NCBI GenBank assembly: GCA_965234725.1
Contig: CBDDUX010000031.1
Coordinates: 1-54,411 of the forward strand
Direction of reading: 5' to 3'
DNA: 54,411 bases
Source: Thermoplasmatota archaeon
GTDB taxonomy: Archaea > Thermoplasmatota > Penumbrarchaeia > Penumbrarchaeales > Penumbrarchaeaceae
This document shows positions 30,823 through 46,445 of this stretch, piece by piece (the first letter of the stretch is position 1; each line of letters starts with the position of its first letter). The position numbers were made by a program, and so were the translations under genes. A model generated the notes under the pieces. The model did not search any database and was not told the origin of the DNA. It saw only the letters and a program-made list of their open reading frames with translations.

Positions 30823-30898
30823 GCGGGTGTGATGTAGCCTGGTATCATTCTAGCTTGCCAAGCTAGTTACTCGGGTTCAAATCCCGGCACCCGCACCA
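30823..30898 (+). tRNA. tRNA-Gly (GCC), CCA encoded, no intron
   Basis: Acceptor stem GCGGGTG/CACCCGC, anticodon arm CTAGC-TTGCCAA-GCTAG, GGTTCAAATCC T loop, discriminator A plus CCA. TTTTAAAAA promoter-like element upstream. Confidence 0.96.
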
Positions 30899-31044
30899 TT
30901 TTTCTTTCGTCAATTATACATCGAAACGAAAAATGGTGCTCAAAAATGATTACACACGACAAAAAATGATTGAGAAAGATTTCATCCGTTTTTTGTCTCA
31001 GGGGTAGAACTTAGATATCGTTAATTTCAAGACAGTTCTACCCC

Positions 31045-31063
31045 TCCCGGCACCCGCACCATT
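31045..31063 (+). repeat. 19-bp direct repeat of the tRNA-Gly 3' end (att-like)
   Basis: TCCCGGCACCCGCACCATT is identical to 30882-30900 and lies 163 bp downstream. Confidence 0.9.
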
Positions 31064-35985: not shown

Positions 35986-38900
35986 ATGAGAGTCAAAGGG
36001 TTAATTCTGGTTTTTGGAGCCATGTTATTGTTGCCATCTGCTTCTGTTTTATTACTTGCAGATGATGACTTCTCAGGTGATGGTATTCATATGGATCATT
36101 CATCGCCAATTGCGGGAGATGCTGCCTTTACCATAGATGGTGATCTTGAGTTGGAGCAAAAAGCAACTGAAATGGGATGGGAGGGTGCCGGAACCAGCTC
36201 CGATCCTATCATTGCCGATGGTATGGAGATCGATGCACAGGGTGGCTCTCAATGTGTGAGGATCACTAATACAAATCTCCATCTGAACATCACCGATTCC
36301 GTTTTCATGAATGCAACTAGCTGGTCCGGAGGTTACGGCATTTATCTAAATTCATGCGGAAATGTATCTGTAATCAATTGCACCATCAAAGATAACAGGC
36401 AGGGTATAATGATCATGGGATCAACGAACATCAGTTGTAAGAATTGCACATTTTTTAACAATTCACAATCCAATATATATTCGAATTATTCAGAAAATGT
36501 ATCATTTCTATTGTGCAATTCCTCAGATAGTTATTATGGTGCTGTAATAACCAGTTCTGAGAAGATCGCTTTTTCCCATTGTGTTATGAACAGATCCTCA
36601 TTCACACTTGATATCAGGATGACCAATAATTCGGTCCTTGACGGTTGTGACTTCGGCTCACCGGGCACTTACTCTATGTCAGCTGTTGATAATCTTACCA
36701 TAAGAAACTGCAATTTCGTGGATGCTCCCATATCTTTGAATTCATGCAGATTCTCCAATATTATTGGAAATACCCTAAGGGACTCCAATCTAAATATTGG
36801 CGAACCAATAACTTCGAGGATATGGGAGAATGATTTCTTCAACCAATCTATATTTTTTACCGGAGGTCTGGGTTATTTCAATGAGATCGAGATCTCATCC
36901 AATAACACTGTGAACGGTCTACCTATCTTTTATGCCCATGACACAGACTATATGGGTGGCTCGCTTGCTACAGGATATGGTCAATATATTCTAGGAAATG
37001 TATCGAACGTGATCATCTCGAATCTGAACCTTGGCCGAGCCGGTTATCCTATGATCATCTCCTACTCAAACAACATTTGGATAGACAATGTCTACCTTTC
37101 CAATTCGATAAACGGGATAACGGTATTTGAATGCCGGGACCTGGAGATCGCTGACAGCACAGTGGTCGATTCCCTTAACTATGGATTGTCGATACAAAGG
37201 ACCAGCAATTCACTGATAAAGGGAAATACCATTGATGGTGCAGAGATCGGCATTTTCATGAACTGGCAATGCAGTTCAAACAGGGTCCTGAATAATAATG
37301 TATTCAATTCCACCCGATATGGGATCTTGATCTATTCTAGGATATACAACTCCCTGATAGAAGAGAATATTCTTAGATTGAATGATGTCGGGATCTGTCT
37401 GCTTGAGTATGATCTTTCAGGGAATAGGATCTCCCGAAACAGGATAATTGACAGTTGGGATACAGGGATACTGGCTGATAGTGTACAGCTTTCAAATGTT
37501 ATCATAGGAAACGAGATCACGGGATCCAAAGTTGGCGGGATGGAGCTGTATAACTGTATCAACCTAAATGTTGTTGACAATATCATCTCGGGTTCCGGTT
37601 CATACTCCATACTTCTCAACGATTCGGATCAGAATAATTTTTATGAAAATCAGATGGAAGGATCCGGCTTCATGCTCTATCGATACTCAGGTGTAGGTTA
37701 TGGTAACACTATCCCATCCAACAACACAGTGAATTCAATGCCTGTTTATTATTACATTGGGAATGGAGAGACCTGGAGCGTACCGGAGAATACGGGTCAG
37801 GCCGTTATTGACGGCTGCTCAAATCTGAAGGTGGAGGGTATAAGTTTCGACAACGTGTCCTATCCCATTGTCGCTTCAAGAGCAAATAACCTTGTGATCT
37901 CGGATTGCAGTTTCAATGACTGTGGGGAAGGTGGGATCCACATATTCCAGCCATCTGTCACAACTATCCTGGGAAATAATTTCACCAGGAGTGAGAACGG
38001 AGTAGCCCTTGTCAACGGGCAAATGTCACAATCCAAGACAGTGTATGTCGATTTCAATAATTTCACATCTATAAACGGTGTGGGATTGAAGGTCAGAGGG
38101 TACAAAGGATTTTACACGGAGGGGAACCTCTTCAAGGATTGTAAATTCGGGTGCTTGTTGGATAACTGCAACAATTATTCCATGAAGAAGGACCTCTTCA
38201 TTGATTGTGCTGGTGCGGGGATCCTGATGTTCAGGAATAGTAACAACAGGATAACCGAGAGCACTTTCTATTCATGCGGAGTTGGCATCCATGAGATCGA
38301 TCGCTGCAACAACAATGTGTTGACCTTCAATCTGATCAAAGGATGCTCAGGTCCTGCCATTCATCTGGATCCCACTTCATACAATGACAAGGTCTACAAC
38401 AACGCATTCATCTTGAACAACGGAACGGGTGAGACCTATGTTGATGGCAAACCCCAGGTACTCGATGAGAACAAAGGGGGAAGATGGTTCCATCCCAATG
38501 GCATCGGAAATCACTGGTATGATCTAAGAGAACCCGATTCCGACTCCGATGGAACAGTTGACATTCCTTACATCATTGCAGATGATCTTACTGATGATTT
38601 CCCAATAGCAGAGCTTCATCTAACGATTGCGACAGCTCCCACTCATCCGGGTGCAGTGGGATTCAAGGGATACGTACATGTTGGCTGGAGAGAACCTGAA
38701 GAGACCAGAGGAATGCCTGTAATGTCCTACAACATATACAGGAACAACGGCACATCGGAAGACGAGATCGTCTCAACTGTTTCGGGGATGGAGTATATAT
38801 TCAACGATACGGATGTTCTGAACGATGTTACCTATACTTACCATGTCCAGGCAGTCACTGTCTTTGGATCAGGTGAGCTCACAGGCCCCTTTACGGCCAC

Positions 38901-40554
38901 TCCAGATGGAACACCTCCCTTCCTGGAGATCTTGAACCCGTTGGATGGTTCCATTTTCAATATAGATTCCATCAAGGTGGAATGGGATGCCAGGGACACA
39001 ATTATAGGATCAGGATTGAAGTTCGTAACTTTTACCATGGATGGAGGATCGCCGCAGGATGTAACGGACCTGAGTTCCCTGGATGTAATGAACCTCACCG
39101 GAGGGGAACACGAGATCACGATCGAGGCCATGGATAACGTTGGAAATGGAATAACGGTTTCAGCCTCGTTCATTGTGGACCTGGACGATCCATTTGTCGA
39201 GATTTCCAGTCCTTTGAACGGATCCCTCCTCAATACCAGATCCTTTATGATCAGCTGGAACGGTTCCGATCCGACCACAGCTGTAAGCAATTATTCCGTC
39301 AGGATCGATAGCGGTCCATGGACGGAGGTGGGAACCAATACCAGCATGATCCTTTCGGATCTATCCGAGGGGTTCTATCAGCTGAGCATAATGGCCATCG
39401 ATATGGCTGGAAATTTCAATACCTCTTCCATATCGATCTCCATAGACTTCACTCCGCCTACATTGACATTGAGATCCCCCACCAACGGGTCCTATCACAA
39501 GCTCAATAGGATACTCGTCAACTGGACCGCGAGCGATGATCTGTTCGGGATCCAAAGGGTCAGTCTCTTTGTTGATGATGTCCTGAACGACGAAGACCTT
39601 GAGATGGAGGAATTCTATGTTGAGGACCTGGAAGATGGGGATCATAACATAACCATCAAGGCAGTTGACATGGCCGGTAACGTCAAACAGATTACCGTTT
39701 TGGTCCATGTTGATACCATACAACCGGAGATCGTCGAATACGGTCCTGTTGGTGTCAATGTCGATGTGGCATCAAACATATTCATTCTTTTCAACGAAGT
39801 GCTGAACTGGAATTCCGTTTCCCTCATGGTGACGGGTGTACCTGTCGCCTTCGAGAGGGAGGGTCTGACGATCCGTTATGATCAACCCTCTCCACTGCAG
39901 TACGGCAGGACCTACCAGATCTCCATTTCGGGAATGGACCTGGCAGGCAACATGGTCTCTCTGGAATGGTCGTTCGAAACCGATGGGAATGGATCAGTCA
40001 GAGGTCAACTGCTCTCCCCCCAAGGTTCCCCATTGGTTGGGGTCCAGATATTCCTTGATGATGATGAAAAGGCCCTTTCCAATGAAAACGGGTATTTCAA
40101 TTTCAATATCACCTACGGGACCTACAATCTTGTTATCCGGGGGAATAATTACCAGGAGAAAGTGGTAAAGGCTGTTGTAAGCGCTGGCAAGACAACGGAC
40201 CTTGGTCAGATCACCATGGAACCGCTTGATGAGACCCCGGGAGAAGAAAAAGATGAGGGCGGATCGGGATCATGGGTCCTGATCGTTGCAATACTTGTAG
40301 TAGTGATCCTCATCGTGGTGATAATAGTGATCTTCATTTTATCAAGAAGGTCCAGAGGTCCAAAGGAGAGCATTGGCGTCTACGAAAAAGCGGAAGGGCT
40401 CAGAGGTATCGCTTCGAAAAGGGGCATTGCCATTGATGATCTGGAACCGGATTACAAGAACGCACTTTATCAGAGAGACATCGGTGACCTGGAGGATTCC
40501 AAACACTCAATGGAAAGATATGTTGAAGACCTTGAAAGGAAGATGGAGGAATAA
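35986..40554 (+). CDS. Large surface protein: NosD/beta-helix repeats, FN3, Ig-like domains, carboxypeptidase-regulatory-like domain, TM anchor
   Basis: IDGD....W.G.GT..DP.I N-terminal motif, NNTVNG.P, GN.W.D...D...DG.VD.PY, Y.IYR..Y.Y.V.A FN3, repeated D.AGN Ig motifs, C-terminal TM. Confidence 0.85.
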   Translation: MRVKGLILVFGAMLLLPSASVLLLADDDFSGDGIHMDHSSPIAGDAAFTIDGDLELEQKATEMGWEGAGTSSDPIIADGMEIDAQGGSQCVRITNTNLHLNITDSVFMNATSWSGGYGIYLNSCGNVSVINCTIKDNRQGIMIMGSTNISCKNCTFFNNSQSNIYSNYSENVSFLLCNSSDSYYGAVITSSEKIAFSHCVMNRSSFTLDIRMTNNSVLDGCDFGSPGTYSMSAVDNLTIRNCNFVDAPISLNSCRFSNIIGNTLRDSNLNIGEPITSRIWENDFFNQSIFFTGGLGYFNEIEISSNNTVNGLPIFYAHDTDYMGGSLATGYGQYILGNVSNVIISNLNLGRAGYPMIISYSNNIWIDNVYLSNSINGITVFECRDLEIADSTVVDSLNYGLSIQRTSNSLIKGNTIDGAEIGIFMNWQCSSNRVLNNNVFNSTRYGILIYSRIYNSLIEENILRLNDVGICLLEYDLSGNRISRNRIIDSWDTGILADSVQLSNVIIGNEITGSKVGGMELYNCINLNVVDNIISGSGSYSILLNDSDQNNFYENQMEGSGFMLYRYSGVGYGNTIPSNNTVNSMPVYYYIGNGETWSVPENTGQAVIDGCSNLKVEGISFDNVSYPIVASRANNLVISDCSFNDCGEGGIHIFQPSVTTILGNNFTRSENGVALVNGQMSQSKTVYVDFNNFTSINGVGLKVRGYKGFYTEGNLFKDCKFGCLLDNCNNYSMKKDLFIDCAGAGILMFRNSNNRITESTFYSCGVGIHEIDRCNNNVLTFNLIKGCSGPAIHLDPTSYNDKVYNNAFILNNGTGETYVDGKPQVLDENKGGRWFHPNGIGNHWYDLREPDSDSDGTVDIPYIIADDLTDDFPIAELHLTIATAPTHPGAVGFKGYVHVGWREPEETRGMPVMSYNIYRNNGTSEDEIVSTVSGMEYIFNDTDVLNDVTYTYHVQAVTVFGSGELTGPFTATPDGTPPFLEILNPLDGSIFNIDSIKVEWDARDTIIGSGLKFVTFTMDGGSPQDVTDLSSLDVMNLTGGEHEITIEAMDNVGNGITVSASFIVDLDDPFVEISSPLNGSLLNTRSFMISWNGSDPTTAVSNYSVRIDSGPWTEVGTNTSMILSDLSEGFYQLSIMAIDMAGNFNTSSISISIDFTPPTLTLRSPTNGSYHKLNRILVNWTASDDLFGIQRVSLFVDDVLNDEDLEMEEFYVEDLEDGDHNITIKAVDMAGNVKQITVLVHVDTIQPEIVEYGPVGVNVDVASNIFILFNEVLNWNSVSLMVTGVPVAFEREGLTIRYDQPSPLQYGRTYQISISGMDLAGNMVSLEWSFETDGNGSVRGQLLSPQGSPLVGVQIFLDDDEKALSNENGYFNFNITYGTYNLVIRGNNYQEKVVKAVVSAGKTTDLGQITMEPLDETPGEEKDEGGSGSWVLIVAILVVVILIVVIIVIFILSRRSRGPKESIGVYEKAEGLRGIASKRGIAIDDLEPDYKNALYQRDIGDLEDSKHSMERYVEDLERKMEE

Positions 40555-42500: not shown

Positions 42501-42572
42501 AGAATGAGGTTAAATACCCGGTAGGTTGGTTATTTGTGGCGCGTAAAAGGCCCACCAATGGAGGTAACAAAA

Positions 42573-43238
42573 ATGAATACAAGAACGATGATCTTCGGTG
42601 GCTCAGCTGCTCTGGCCCTTCTCATAGGGGTCGCATTCTTTGCGGCCGCTACCGAGACCAATGATGGCACGATGTTGGGAGAAACAGCCCTTGGAGACAT
42701 GCTTCGCAAGGGTATGGACAATGGAAAAGGTGAGGTCGAACGTGCCATGGATGGAGAATGTGACCCTGAAGACGCAGAGCAGGCACGTGAGCAGGAGAAG
42801 CTCCAGGATGGCAGCTGTGGTGACGGTCCTTCAGAGGACGGCTCAGGTGAGATGAAGCAGGAGCAATCTCAGCAGAAGTCCGAAGGTTCAGATGCACCCG
42901 AGGATGCAGATCAGGCACGTGAGCAGGAGAAGCTCCAGGATGGCAGCTGTGGTGACGGTCCTTCAGAGGACGGCTCAGGTGAGATGAAGCAGGAGCAGTC
43001 CCAGCAGAAGTCCGAAGGTTCAGATGCACCCGAGGATGCGGAACAGACCCGTGAAAGGGAGCAGTTGAAAGACGGTTCCTGTGACGATGACGCCTCGGAA
43101 GATGAGGTTGTTTTCATATCATCCACAAGTGATGCCGGGGACGAATCAAAGGATAGGTCCGGCATTCAGCAGCACGACAGGGACAGGGACCAGGACAACG
43201 GCGGAACAGGTCCTGAATACAGGAACGGCGCAGTTTGA
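42573..43238 (+). CDS. Secreted acidic low-complexity protein with 44-aa DGSC repeats
   Basis: GGAGGT SD, signal peptide/TM, about 2.5 copies of PEDAEQAREQEKLQDGSCGDGPSEDGSGEMKQEQSQQKSEGSDA. Confidence 0.75.
   Translation: MNTRTMIFGGSAALALLIGVAFFAAATETNDGTMLGETALGDMLRKGMDNGKGEVERAMDGECDPEDAEQAREQEKLQDGSCGDGPSEDGSGEMKQEQSQQKSEGSDAPEDADQAREQEKLQDGSCGDGPSEDGSGEMKQEQSQQKSEGSDAPEDAEQTREREQLKDGSCDDDASEDEVVFISSTSDAGDESKDRSGIQQHDRDRDQDNGGTGPEYRNGAV
42765..43088 (+). repeat. 132-bp intragenic tandem repeat (about 2.5 copies)
   Basis: CAGGCACGTGAGCAGGAGAAGCTCC at 42780 and 42912. Copies 1 and 2 are near-identical; the third is partial and diverged. Confidence 0.92.
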
Positions 43239-43249
43239 ACATCGATTTT

Positions 43250-43284
43250 ATGCCGGATGGTCCGAATTGGACCTCCGGCATTTT
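43250..43284 (+). terminator. GC-rich hairpin after the repeat-protein gene
   Basis: ATGCCGGA-T-GGTCC / GGACC-TCCGGCAT stem followed by TTT, just after the stop codon. Confidence 0.55.
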
Positions 43285-43331
43285 GTATGAAAATTCATGA
43301 AAGCGGGTTGTAATCCTTTTTCATACACCCG

Positions 43332-43750
43332 CAAAGCAGTGTCTCTAATTGACGATCTGTTTTGACCTTGGAATTACTGAGATGATCTCAACATTATCTA
43401 ATTTCAAGGCACGCACAATGGTGTATGTCAGTGACGATCCATTGCTGCTGTGTGTCGAAATTACGAGTTATTAATACATTTGACGCGAGTAATTTACGAC
43501 ATTCCTATTTTAATAATCGGGTCTTGACATCATCGATGGCAAGGTCAGCATAAAACCGAAGCCGAAGGCTGTTTTCTGCAATGATTTCGAAGTCACATAA
43601 CTTATTTGATTGACGAGACCTTGAAATTGCTGAACCCTATCCAATCTCTCTGAATTTCAAGGCATGCACAATAGTGCTTTCAATTGACGCTCTATTGTTG
43701 CTATGGATCGAAATTCCGCATCATATCGAATTGACGAAAGGAATTTACGA
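43332..43750 (+). ncRNA. Candidate structured non-coding element: two diverged three-hairpin units (43366-43501, 43619-43750) plus an extra hairpin at 43332-43364
   Basis: Conserved stems with compensatory changes, conserved bulges and TTGACG loops. No ORF of 60 aa or more. G-U pairs favour the + strand. Confidence 0.55.
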
Positions 43751-43837
43751 GCTCCTTTGAAAAAGGAGTGACTTACGAAAAAACCCGCTTAACATTTTCA
43801 TCCTATGTTGTGAGCATTTAACTCTTGAGGGTTTTTT

Positions 43838-45130
43838 TTAATTTTCAACGAACTTGATACCTTTTTGTTTCAACCTTTCCAGGGCCGTAGTGTATACCTT
43901 GTGATGTGTGGGGATCTGAACCCCAGTGAAACCTTTCATTTCTCCCTTCAAGATCATTTCCACTCCGATCGCAGCCGGGAGCCCAACAGTCCTGGACATT
44001 GCAGAATCCCCTCCCGGGATTCCTTGATCGATCATTGTCGAGGTCAGGACCTTTTCAGTTCCATTTCTTTCTACCCTGAATTTGTGTTGAAGGATGATCA
44101 TATCCTTTTCACCCGGCTGGTAGGTCAACTTCTTGTTCAGAAGGTCCGAAAATGAGTCCATCATACTCTCGGTACTGCTCAATGGTTCATCCGAGAACAG
44201 GCCGAGCCAATCCCAATTGCTTATGGCTGTCATGTTGTTCTTAGTGTTTATGCTGGATAGAGCCCTTTCCTTAAGGTTTCCCTCTCCGGGGATGAGGCCC
44301 TCCATTAGCTGGTGGAAAGTTGCTGCTGTTGTGGGGGCTTCTTCCAGGATCCCGATATCATGAAGTCCTTTCCAGGTATCGCACCACCCTTTGTTCCTTA
44401 GTGTTCCCCTAAGGACGGTCCTGGACTCAGGGATCCCGTAGATATCCCCGTAGGGTACCGAATCCCTGTTGGGATAACCTTCGAATTTTCCCATGCCCGG
44501 TATGTCTATCATCTCATAGGTTCCGAAAAGCTCCTTTCCTGGAACATCTAGGACCTTTCCATCTCTCTTGAACCTTGCATTGTTCTTTGAGGCCAGAACG
44601 ACCCCCCTTGGACTCCAGGAGAACTTGTAACCCCATGGATTAGTATTTGCATCAGGAGCTGGGAGACCTCCGCAGTAGGAGATGAATTCTAGGACTTTAC
44701 CTCCATCTTTGTGTACCAGGTCGATCACCCTTTGAGCTTCCATGTGATCGATCCCGGGGTCCAAACCCATCTCGTTCATTATGAGGATTCCAGCGTCCTT
44801 TGCTGCTTTGTCATATCCCTTCATCTTCTCAGAGACGTAGGATGTGGTGACCATGGACCTGCCTTTCCTTAAACAGGCTTCAGCTACGAGATGATGACAG
44901 GTGTAAGGTAATAGTGAGACAGAGACATCGTTCTCATCCACCAGCTTATCCAGGTTGTTATCCCGGTTTATATCAAATCGGAGAGGTTGCCCTCCTCCCG
45001 AGCTTTTTGTGATCCTTTCCGCCTTTTCCAAGGTCCTGCTGGCAACGGTGACTTTGAACCCCGCTCCCACGAGGTGATCGACCAGCGGTCTGGCTACAAG
45101 CCCCGCTCCTAAAACAAGTACGCTTTTCAT
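43838..45130 (-). CDS. Saccharopine dehydrogenase (glutamate-forming; Lys9/AASS C-terminal type)
   Basis: VLGAG.VA.P, SLLPY..H, VTTSY, NEMGLDPGIDH, SYCGGLP, YKFSWSPRG, YPNRDS, RGTLR, SAMSRTVG. Confidence 0.92.
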   Translation of the reverse strand: MKSVLVLGAGLVARPLVDHLVGAGFKVTVASRTLEKAERITKSSGGGQPLRFDINRDNNLDKLVDENDVSVSLLPYTCHHLVAEACLRKGRSMVTTSYVSEKMKGYDKAAKDAGILIMNEMGLDPGIDHMEAQRVIDLVHKDGGKVLEFISYCGGLPAPDANTNPWGYKFSWSPRGVVLASKNNARFKRDGKVLDVPGKELFGTYEMIDIPGMGKFEGYPNRDSVPYGDIYGIPESRTVLRGTLRNKGWCDTWKGLHDIGILEEAPTTAATFHQLMEGLIPGEGNLKERALSSINTKNNMTAISNWDWLGLFSDEPLSSTESMMDSFSDLLNKKLTYQPGEKDMIILQHKFRVERNGTEKVLTSTMIDQGIPGGDSAMSRTVGLPAAIGVEMILKGEMKGFTGVQIPTHHKVYTTALERLKQKGIKFVEN

Positions 45131-45131
45131 A

Positions 45132-46445
45132 TTATATCTCCTGAAGTGCCTTTTCAAGATATCTGTAACCTTCTGTTAGTTCTCCCTTGTAGATGATTAT
45201 GGCTTTTCTGATGGGTTTGGGGACCTTAAGATCTTCGAATGAGACCGTGAGGTCCGCATTTGCAAGAGCTGGAAGGAACTCCTTGAGCTTGTCTCCAAAA
45301 TAATCGGATGATTCCTTCGGGATCTCGCATGGAAGATTGTCCACCGTCATCATAACGGGACCGGTTCCTTTCCAGCCAGGTATGGCAGAATCTTCCCATG
45401 GATCATATACATATAGAGGATCCTCAGGGGATGTGGCCTTGATCGTTGACTGGATGGCCCCGTTAATATCGCAAGATATATCCCCGATGACACGGAGCTT
45501 CGGGGATCGGTGGTCCTGGTAAAGCTCTTTGATCTGTTCCTTTGTAAGAAGTCTGGGATATTTCTCTTCCCAGTAGATGCAGTTCATCAGGACTGAGAGA
45601 TAAGGAATATACCGATTGAACTTGGACCTGTAACGTTCAGGGTTGTTGTAATAGTCCTGAAGATCGAACTTTCCCTCGGGATCGATTGGTTCGACCATGT
45701 CCCATTCGTTGAATATTACTTTGTAGATATTGGTCCCGGAATCCTTCCTCTTGTTCAGATCCTTTAGCTCTGCCGGGCTGACCTCTTTTACCGGGAGAAG
45801 ATCCAGTATCTCTTGTGCCCCCTTGGATACGTTACCGGAACCCGCGATCCCGATGACAAACGGTCTGATGGAATAGGGGATCCCGTAGGTTGTGATCATC
45901 CTTCCAACTGCCGAGATATGTTCCCTGATATTGGGGAGGTTACCGTACTCGTGCGCCTTCATTATCGAACTGAATGGATTTCTGACCCCTTCCCATTCCA
46001 GTCTCCGGCCGACGGTCCAAAGTGTGTCCACCATACCTGCAACGCCGGCATGCCATCCGAAGAATATCAGACGTCTACCCTGCTCATCGACGATCTTCTC
46101 ATAATCGATCAAGGTGCAGTGAATGTCCATCATCTTCTTGAGCATCCTCATGTTGTGCTTCTGTCCCTTGATGGTATGTGAGAAGAACATGTAACACATC
46201 TTCGGGATGAGCTCGTGGATAGGTACTTCCTTAATTCCCAGGGTGATATCCACCTCGTTCAGCTCTTCATCAATCCTAGCTCCGGCAGTCTCATAGTCCT
46301 CGGTAAGGAATGCCCTGAGATCAGAAGGCTGTACAGTGAACTTTACCTCATGGTCGTTTACAAGCCTCTGGACATGGTCCGGAGTTAGGGGGGCTCTTCT
46401 CTCCCATCTATTCTTGCTTTCCCGCCTGATCCCAATTCGGTTCAT
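45132..46445 (-). CDS. Lysine-2-oxoglutarate reductase (AASS N-terminal / LKR type)
   Basis: IGIRRE.KN.WERRAPLTP, FFSHTIKGQ..NM, LIDYEKI, FG..AG.AG, GSGNVSKGAQE, DISCD..G, DNLP.E.P. Confidence 0.9.
   Translation of the reverse strand: MNRIGIRRESKNRWERRAPLTPDHVQRLVNDHEVKFTVQPSDLRAFLTEDYETAGARIDEELNEVDITLGIKEVPIHELIPKMCYMFFSHTIKGQKHNMRMLKKMMDIHCTLIDYEKIVDEQGRRLIFFGWHAGVAGMVDTLWTVGRRLEWEGVRNPFSSIMKAHEYGNLPNIREHISAVGRMITTYGIPYSIRPFVIGIAGSGNVSKGAQEILDLLPVKEVSPAELKDLNKRKDSGTNIYKVIFNEWDMVEPIDPEGKFDLQDYYNNPERYRSKFNRYIPYLSVLMNCIYWEEKYPRLLTKEQIKELYQDHRSPKLRVIGDISCDINGAIQSTIKATSPEDPLYVYDPWEDSAIPGWKGTGPVMMTVDNLPCEIPKESSDYFGDKLKEFLPALANADLTVSFEDLKVPKPIRKAIIIYKGELTEGYRYLEKALQEI

Follow-up and report, generated by a model that had tools for sequence, protein, structure and literature searches.

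Hairpin units in a gap between convergent genes

The locus raises the question of what two similar, strongly structured non-coding units are doing in a gap between convergent archaeal genes. We refer to the whole stretch of DNA that was analyzed, 54,411 nt from a Thermoplasmatota archaeon, as the window; the genome to which it belongs (G000) comprises 3.54 Mb in 114 contigs and is 97.65% complete. The gap spans 599 nt between the ORFs 42534..43238 (+) and 43838..45157 (−), the second of which encodes a saccharopine dehydrogenase, and the longest ORF within it is at most 44 aa. Relatives of the neighboring gene come from uncultured Thermoplasmatales/Thermoplasmatota MAGs, and the sequencing runs that match the locus are marine-sediment metagenomes. 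The upstream ORF (42534-43238) encodes an acidic protein without a Pfam match that contains internal repeats, their number varying between relatives, and further upstream (35986-40554) lies the gene for a 1522-aa surface protein with beta-helix and Ig domains.

An initial annotation of the window described two units of three hairpins each, differing by compensatory changes. Upon rereading the sequence, we found every one of these hairpins where it had been placed, including the 253-nt spacing of the two units (77% identity across a 66-nt ungapped core), the C-G to T-A and G-C to A-T swaps in hairpin B, the A-T to C-G swap and the bulged A in hairpin C, the loop lengths (22/24, 17/17, and 24/22), and the G-T pairs, one in A1 and one in the hairpin at 43331-43364. 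A covariance model from 10 units (R1) scored unit 2 at 138.1 bits (E 8e-32) and unit 1 at 132.7 bits (E 2e-30), while the reverse strand of the window units reached 20.6 bits with the same model; the hairpin pair is far above chance. The initial annotation had also described the loops as strongly divergent at nearly constant length; the lengths are indeed nearly kept, but the divergence is not a plain one, as all 10 aligned units have GACG in both the B and the C loop. Between 43349 and 43736 of the + strand (∼390 nt) there are five TTGACG and one GTGACG, each 2 to 3 nt 5' of a hairpin 3' arm, compared with 30 TTGACG in the whole 54-kb window when both strands are counted. One of these six motifs lies in the loop of a further hairpin arm (43585-43596), the sixth, which had been overlooked.

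The units as parts of a composite element

The span originally proposed, 43332..43750, contains real units but is merely the inner part of a larger element of 556 nt (43284-43839), which has a hairpin head and a terminator-like tail. Its parts are listed in Table 1 together with those of a minimal element from elsewhere in the genome.

Table 1. Parts of the composite element in the window, the adjoining host hairpin, and a minimal element for comparison. Positions are those of the window unless a contig is given.
Feature	Position	Strand	Description
Host terminator-like hairpin of upstream gene	43252..43284	+	GCCGGATGGTCC / GGACCTCCGGC, then ATTTT; insertion target, outside the element
A0 head hairpin	43284..43327	+	TGTATGAAAA / TTTTCATACA; 10 nt, 100% complementary
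B0 hairpin	43328..43364	+	GCAAAGCAG / CTGTTTTG; 17-nt loop with TTGACGAT at its end; modeled as B-type in minimal elements
Three-hairpin unit 1	43365..43501	+	A1 43366-43409, B1 43410-43452, C1 43455-43499; R1 132.7 bits
S module, two more hairpins	43517..43585	+	TCTTGACATC..GATGGCAAGG and GCAGAAAAC..CTGTTTTCTGC; recurs in other copies
C0 outer hairpin, 5' arm and loop	43585..43618	+	Arm TTTCGAAGTCAC; loop ends in TTGACGAGA
Three-hairpin unit 2, nested in C0 loop	43618..43752	+	A2 43619-43662, B2 43663-43705, C2 43708-43750; R1 138.1 bits
K hairpin	43752..43768	+	CTCCTTT GAA AAAGGAG; altered stem in C100 and C77
C0 3' arm	43768..43780	+	GTGACTTACGAAA, bulged A
Tail	43781..43839	+	A-run/CCC..GGG/T-run stem, head-complementary ATTTTCAT copy, small hairpin, T8
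Minimal element parts	C63:27137-27330		A0 GTATGAAAA / TTTTCATAC; B0; C0 TTTCGAAGTCAC / GTGACTTaCGAAA; tail closing with small hairpin and T-run

The A0 hairpin is the conserved start of 12 minimal elements, and its first and last base covary. The C0 5' arm, which in the minimal element of contig C63 pairs directly with GTGACTTACGAAA, is separated from its partner in the window by a nested unit, an arrangement that also occurs in the copies on C3, C100, and C77. The tail stem carries compensatory CCC/GGG to CUC/GAG changes among minimal elements, and in the window the tail reaches with its last bases into the stop codon of the convergent gene for saccharopine dehydrogenase. In all 12 minimal elements, 8 bp of the head are complementary to the tail (94.8% paired, one covarying pair), with the right copy ∼35 nt inside the 3' end; this could be either a short inverted repeat or an alternative helix. 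The S module (43517-43585), which includes CCGAAGSCGWAGSC and is also seen in C69, C100, C60, C38, C114, C103, and C77, is a second recurring building block with compensatory changes of its own; nhmmer found nine matches to it in the genome at E ≤ 1, seven of these at E ≤ 2e-4.

Conservation of fold, loop motif, and strand

The repeated module comprises 136 nt and three hairpins, A, B, and C. The initial annotation had proposed that selection acts on the fold, and the larger sample bears this out: in a covariation set of 76 matches (68 distinct, from 51 sources), 96.3% of cells are paired, 31 of 32 pairs have changed on both sides, and none of 500 shuffles scored as high. When the partners were slid as a control, 26 to 49% of cells were paired. 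The 68-copy alignment was fitted to R1, which favors the structure, and independent MAFFT alignments (of 10 units and of 12 minimal elements) agree with it; already the first 10-unit alignment gave a three-hairpin consensus with double changes at 18 of 32 pairs. The A stems vary almost freely, and B and C retain their bulges and a loop motif, AUYGACG. Hairpin shape, bulges, and the AUYGACG loop motif are kept while the stem sequences change.

The fold also has a direction, as the initial annotation had suggested from its G-T pairs. In the 41 best units, we counted 28 G-T cells versus 9 A-C cells on the + strand, a single-copy strand test gave 140.6 bits on one strand versus 32.1 on the other, and adjacent U-G and G-U pairs in the tail hairpin are kept in 11 of 12 minimal elements. 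Folding of the whole element gave −152 kcal/mol (z −4.2) for the + strand and −146 kcal/mol (z −3.6) for the − strand. These results bear on whether the inverted repeats could be palindromes bound as double strands by a DNA-binding protein, or could form a replication origin. Their clustering in a gap without coding sequence would fit; the freely changing stems with conserved loops, the asymmetric bulges, the excess of G-T over A-C cells, the very different scores of the two strands, and the dozens of dispersed copies do not, so that this explanation, disfavored given the strand asymmetry, is barely credible.

That the unit belongs to no recognized RNA family, as had been supposed, agrees with our searches: the best match in Rfam 15, which includes C/D and H/ACA sRNAs, ribozymes, and omega/HEARO RNAs, was to an unrelated lncRNA model at E 0.88, and at the Rfam gathering threshold one tRNA was the sole match in the window. 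By eye, we tried to read the loop motif as a K-loop, a GNRA loop, or a sarcin-ricin-like loop, and none of these readings was consistent across copies. The idea that the loops might act as guides gained no support: when 61 loop sequences were compared with the genome itself, matches of 14 to 20 nt occurred at chance level, one adjacent partial duplicate aside.

A mosaic, dispersed repeat family

The units are not a local duplication of a single-copy RNA gene but belong to a dispersed, insertion-polymorphic repeat family. BLAST and nhmmer found complete and incomplete copies, distributed over at least 15 contigs of this genome, and R1 gave 37 matches at E ≤ 1, reading the minimal element itself as one unit composed of A0, B0, and C0. 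The minimal element is ∼190 nt long (e.g., C63:27137-27330) and has four parts: A0, B0, C0, and tail. The copy on C69 is a minimal element plus an S module, the copy on C3 carries a unit and a K hairpin inside the C0 loop, immediately 3' of TTGACGAGA, and the window copy combines an S module, a unit with K hairpin nested in the C0 loop, and an extra unit 3' of B0. More generally, head, units or S module, and tail are combined differently in C63, C69, C3, C100, and C31, and one element lies behind the tail of another. Some copies in the genome are 98 to 100% identical; those on C3 and in the window share 98% identity over 252 nt and 100% over the 49-nt head. Head and tail are <600 nt apart in every pair in the genome, with no ORF between them, and a search for ORFs of ≥100 aa inside copies found none except for two edge overlaps.

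Assembled DNA reads contain a contig that runs from the upstream gene to 43364, then CTGGG, then 43585; we do not count it as bridging because its far side comprises 21 letters only. The joints in a second DNA run match other copies in the genome.

We lean toward the reading that the duplicated unit is a 136-nt building block of a clade-specific, many-copy, mosaic intergenic repeat, similar in kind to REP/BIME or BOX elements and folding on the + strand. The window copy is a composite built on a minimal base of ∼190 nt (A0, B0, C0, and the terminator-like tail), with an extra unit and the S module added between B0 and C0 and a second unit and the K hairpin within the C0 loop. It occupies the T-run that comes after the upstream gene's terminator hairpin.

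Distribution across related genomes

A covariance-model search of the genome and its relatives, as the initial annotation had proposed, recovered homologs at E ≤ 0.01 from 23 of the 24 family genomes; G001 has 68 matches. At E ≤ 1e-5, matches were seen in 22 of 37 class genomes; outside the family this was so for 1 of 13 (G028, 11 matches), and the sister family had none (0 of 2). In a sample of the phylum, 14 of 151 genomes matched, all 14 within the family, and 0 of 134 others, where a non-match means "not found" and not "absent" since MAGs are incomplete. Repeats and mobile genes, moreover, often stay unbinned in MAGs. The repeat family is restricted to one archaeal family and one outlier genome.

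Exact 17-mer scans extended the search to wider collections, from which three viral loci and six Thermoplasmat- MAG loci only were given to the model. In the viral collection, there were three matches, none of which the model confirmed; in the genome collection there were at least 117, mostly chance ones in bacteria, and all six of the MAG loci tested were confirmed. In G001, which has the most copies, many contigs (C114, C116, C117, C95, C32, C61, and C112) start or stop inside units. The repeat probably breaks assemblies.

Insertion sites

Copies are present or absent at orthologous sites. In a relative whose neighboring gene is 93% identical (L016), the convergent genes that flank the window copy are separated by a terminator hairpin and T10 alone. 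The C3 copy has an empty site at G004:C22, where the flanks abut in a clean junction with no duplication; this is the only empty site at which a clean junction is known, and the window site cannot decide on target-site duplication because it sits in a T-run. The C63 copy is missing at G003:C55, and G004 does contain the C69 and C27b copies.

The element starts follow a pattern. A hairpin of ≤ −12 kcal/mol lies within 50 nt upstream of 13 of 22 distinct head-type element starts, compared with 31 of 128 control windows, and a T-rich run precedes 22 of 22. Stable RNA genes are also used: a unit begins at the discriminator base of a tRNA-Met in four genomes (G000, G003, G007, and G012, representing two genera), a unit lies close behind the same tRNA-Met in G023 and G020, and one unit begins 11 nt 3' of a 5S rRNA. 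By crude ORF calls, 12 of 21 starts are co-directional with the upstream ORF, 6 are opposite, and 3 have no upstream ORF. We asked whether the 5' arm of the A hairpin is a host-derived target and rejected the idea; it fits the tRNA-Met copies, where the arm equals CC(A) plus a T-run; for head-type elements, by contrast, the empty site does not contain the 5' arm. A combined promoter and terminator consensus scan gave 20 terminator-like sites versus 14.6 expected and called neither the host hairpin nor the tail; having missed both and being built for bacterial promoters, it is uninformative. The single RNA run examined yielded two contigs, both on coding stretches of a relative and neither on the element.

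From this pattern, we infer how the family might work. The element may reach sites behind stem-loops, T-runs, and the 3' ends of stable RNAs either by non-autonomous spread or when copies recombine with one another. It would be transcribed by read-through as a 3' trailer and fold as RNA, and a trans-acting protein could recognize the single strand in its folded state by the GACG loops and the conserved bulges, and so copy the element or serve a role at the RNA level.

The main rival is that the arrays are a functional RNA family, a real if minor possibility. GACG-loop hairpin arrays would then serve as 3' trailers of mRNAs, tRNA-Met, and rRNA that bind, titrate, or recruit an RNA-binding protein or aid 3'-end formation, with their copy number arising from gene duplication. 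The strongly conserved structure with its fixed single-stranded motif and fixed bulges, the + strand G-U pairs and terminator-like tail, the placement behind terminators, mostly in the sense orientation, and the units directly 3' of tRNA-Met in two genera all point this way. However, congeners differ widely in copy number (9 to 54 at E ≤ 1e-5), close relatives have empty orthologous sites, and unit subtypes differ at orthologous positions. A unit is found behind this tRNA-Met in 6 of the 18 genomes that have it, and the remaining 12 lack a model match in the locus examined. By reading only, the head of the element has no visible conserved promoter. Two of the observations cut against our preferred reading of a mosaic mobile repeat: only 12 of 21 starts are co-directional with the upstream ORF, and a unit behind the same tRNA-Met in two genera could reflect retained function rather than a parasite.

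The tRNA genes could also point to a miniature site-specific integrative element whose folded hairpins would be attachment sites for a tyrosine recombinase. Integration of a single strand by such enzymes is known from integron cassettes and the CTX phage. G007 repeats 14 nt of the tRNA-Met 3' end along with the unit, the weak insert described below lies between a tRNA-Gly and a 19-nt copy of its 3' end, several genomes have ∼150-nt inserts behind tRNA-Met whose last part repeats the tRNA 3' end, and the conserved bulges are reminiscent of extrahelical bases. Tandem duplication could explain the tRNA-end duplications equally well, though; head-type elements have no flanking direct repeat at the clean empty site, and no integrase gene is found among 87 neighboring ORFs. 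We regard an attachment-site role as improbable.

The weak insert is located at 30893-31044 on the − strand of the window (within 30823-31063). It scores 29 bits with R1, has an A-like hairpin and a C-like hairpin with AATTGACGAAAG, and is flanked by tRNA-Gly(GCC) on one side and a direct 19-nt repeat of that tRNA's 3' end on the other, thereby resembling a ∼150-nt insert with an att-like duplication. Inserts of ∼150 nt in which the tRNA 3' end recurs as the closing sequence are found 3' of tRNA-Met at L311, L313, L316, L319, and L323 (in G017, G013, G009, G014, and G020, respectively); these hold an inverted copy of the T-arm/acceptor region and appear to be a different small element at a shared hot spot.

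Search for partner and mobility genes

The 87 ORFs neighboring 17 loci encode housekeeping or surface proteins, with no transposase, integrase, or reverse transcriptase (RT) among them, and a scan for inverted head motifs yielded no candidate parent insertion sequence. That no mobilizing enzyme or autonomous parent copy was found in these searches counts against our preferred reading, as does the shortness of the putative head-tail inverted repeat, whose right copy lies well inside the element.

The initial annotation had named several enzyme families as potential partners, and our searches found no partner among them. The first of these, HUH/TnpA, corresponds to the idea that the hairpins are substrates for single-strand transposition by a Y1 enzyme, either REP/RAYT-like or derived from IS200/IS605. 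Strand-specific imperfect hairpins, extragenic clustering, the lack of a target duplication at the clean site, and the lack of clear terminal inverted repeats would all be expected of such a substrate. The Y1_Tnp domain (PF01797), however, is unmatched in the nearly complete genome G000, in all 23 other genomes of the family, and in G028, while it is present in 6 genomes of the class without the element and in 6 of 14 control genomes; TnpB gave a single match in the genome, below the cut-off. Known Y1 enzymes are thus largely refuted as the mobilizer, and we consider a Y1 substrate quite improbable. IS110 genes do not track the element either, occurring in 13 of 37 class genomes with 1 of 10 loci adjoining an element. 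At L339 (G017:C108), an IS110-family transposase gene (372-1850) adjoins a solo tail fragment that is directly followed by a complete element.

RT was another of the proposed partners. The RVT_1 match in the genome belongs to a real group II intron (L180, G000:C47:13430-17050, at ∼740-2640) with a 468-aa RT ORF, which begins GTGTGCC 3 nt 3' of a long stem-loop, a IIC-like placement, and matches D1D4-3 and D1D4-1 of Rfam. Copying of the element through RNA, for example by the machinery of this terminator-targeting intron, would agree with the intron's position behind a stem-loop, with element starts a few nt 3' of stem-loops, and with the variable T-run at the element end, as in a terminated transcript. 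Against this, RVT_1 occurs in just 5 of 23 other genomes of the family and is absent from G001, which has 68 units and is 95% complete, as well as from G004 and G028, and the element itself has no match to group II ribozyme domains, which makes this route very unlikely.

It is conceivable, if doubtful, that archaea have a new kind of mobile or RNA-protein system for which the three-hairpin GACG-loop unit serves as recognition module. Its enzyme would be unrelated to Y1-HUH, TnpB, IS110, and group II RT, and a folded single strand would either be copied to the sites where transcription units have their 3' ends (terminator stem-loops, tRNA-Met, and the rRNA operon) or have its function there.

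Likeness to known systems

A REP is defined as a short imperfect palindrome with GTAG, a conserved tetranucleotide, at its foot. The present family does not have this feature, as its conserved motif is within the loops, and it also differs in having hairpins of 42 to 46 nt with loops of 17 to 25 nt, arranged in 136-nt three-hairpin units, with conservation in the loop motif rather than the stem. REP/BIME and REPIN sequences are described as extragenic, many-copy, hairpin-forming, clustered behind genes, and mosaic, with REPINs being non-autonomous and persistent in lineages (PMC3337134, PMC3116915). The present family is likewise extragenic, many-copy, hairpin-forming, clustered behind genes, and mosaic; unlike the REP/REPIN-RAYT systems, it has an archaeal host and no RAYT or Y1 gene in any carrier genome.

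BOX elements follow the scheme boxA-boxB(n)-boxC. In layout only, this scheme of constant ends around a varying count of inner modules is comparable to head, units, and tail here. The sequences are presumably unrelated and the hosts belong to different domains, and our family differs further in its three-hairpin inner module with a fixed loop motif, in units that can be nested in a hairpin loop, and in its preference for insertion behind stem-loops. Pneumococcal BOX repeats are small, interspersed, and structured, and they are judged to be parasitic, slowly transposing, co-transcribed with their neighbors, and limited to close relatives (PMC3049150).

Bacterial group IIC introns are found downstream of terminators, recognizable as an inverted repeat with Ts after it, and lie a few nt 3' of the stem-loop (PMC1702495). 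The similarity concerns target choice only, namely, insertion a few nt 3' of a terminator stem-loop, as at 13 of 22 starts here; the present elements are 190 to 560 nt only and have no RT ORF, and RT genes do not track them. Group II ribozyme models gave no match at E ≤ 10 over 42800-44300, while the same library finds the real intron of the genome. In layout the family is close to REP/BIME or BOX and in its choice of sites to IIC introns, and the data fit a lineage-restricted, non-autonomous, mosaic hairpin repeat.

Other comparisons are more limited. As in MITEs, the copies are small, non-coding, numerous, and insertion-polymorphic and may have a short head-tail inverted repeat; unlike MITEs, they show no target-site duplication at the clean empty site (G004:C22), the right copy of the head-tail complement is internal, and no parent insertion sequence with the same ends was found. 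They differ from IS200/IS605-derived elements of the PATE type, which share end hairpins with a TnpA (Y1) or TnpB element of the genome, in that no TnpA was found and TnpB gave only the one match below the cut-off. An integron attC site is a single imperfect hairpin between gene cassettes, beside an integron integrase; here, the units are not separated by cassette ORFs, and the 87 neighboring ORFs include no integrase. CsrB and RsmZ are protein-sponge RNAs in which several hairpins present one short single-stranded motif. They resemble the present family in the working mode of the functional RNA alternative only, with several hairpins sharing a single-stranded motif, and differ in that our copies are dispersed by the dozen and insertion-polymorphic and that no partner protein was found.

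Intergenic repeats that form structures, such as REP, BIME, and BOX, are characteristic of bacteria. We know of no comparably well-defined archaeal family with this much covariation, and our literature search found no comparable structured intergenic repeat family in archaea. The family provides a second example, besides the IIC introns, of elements that gather behind terminator stem-loops, and a clean case in which shape, bulges, and loop motif are conserved without a known partner gene, which points to an undiscovered protein. The covariance model can be used to annotate dozens of unexplained gaps in these MAGs and to explain some of their assembly breaks. In G000, two NAD synthase paralogues (L162:3059-4093 on C27 and L163:5517-6497 on C26) each have a copy of the element upstream, which may be coincidence.
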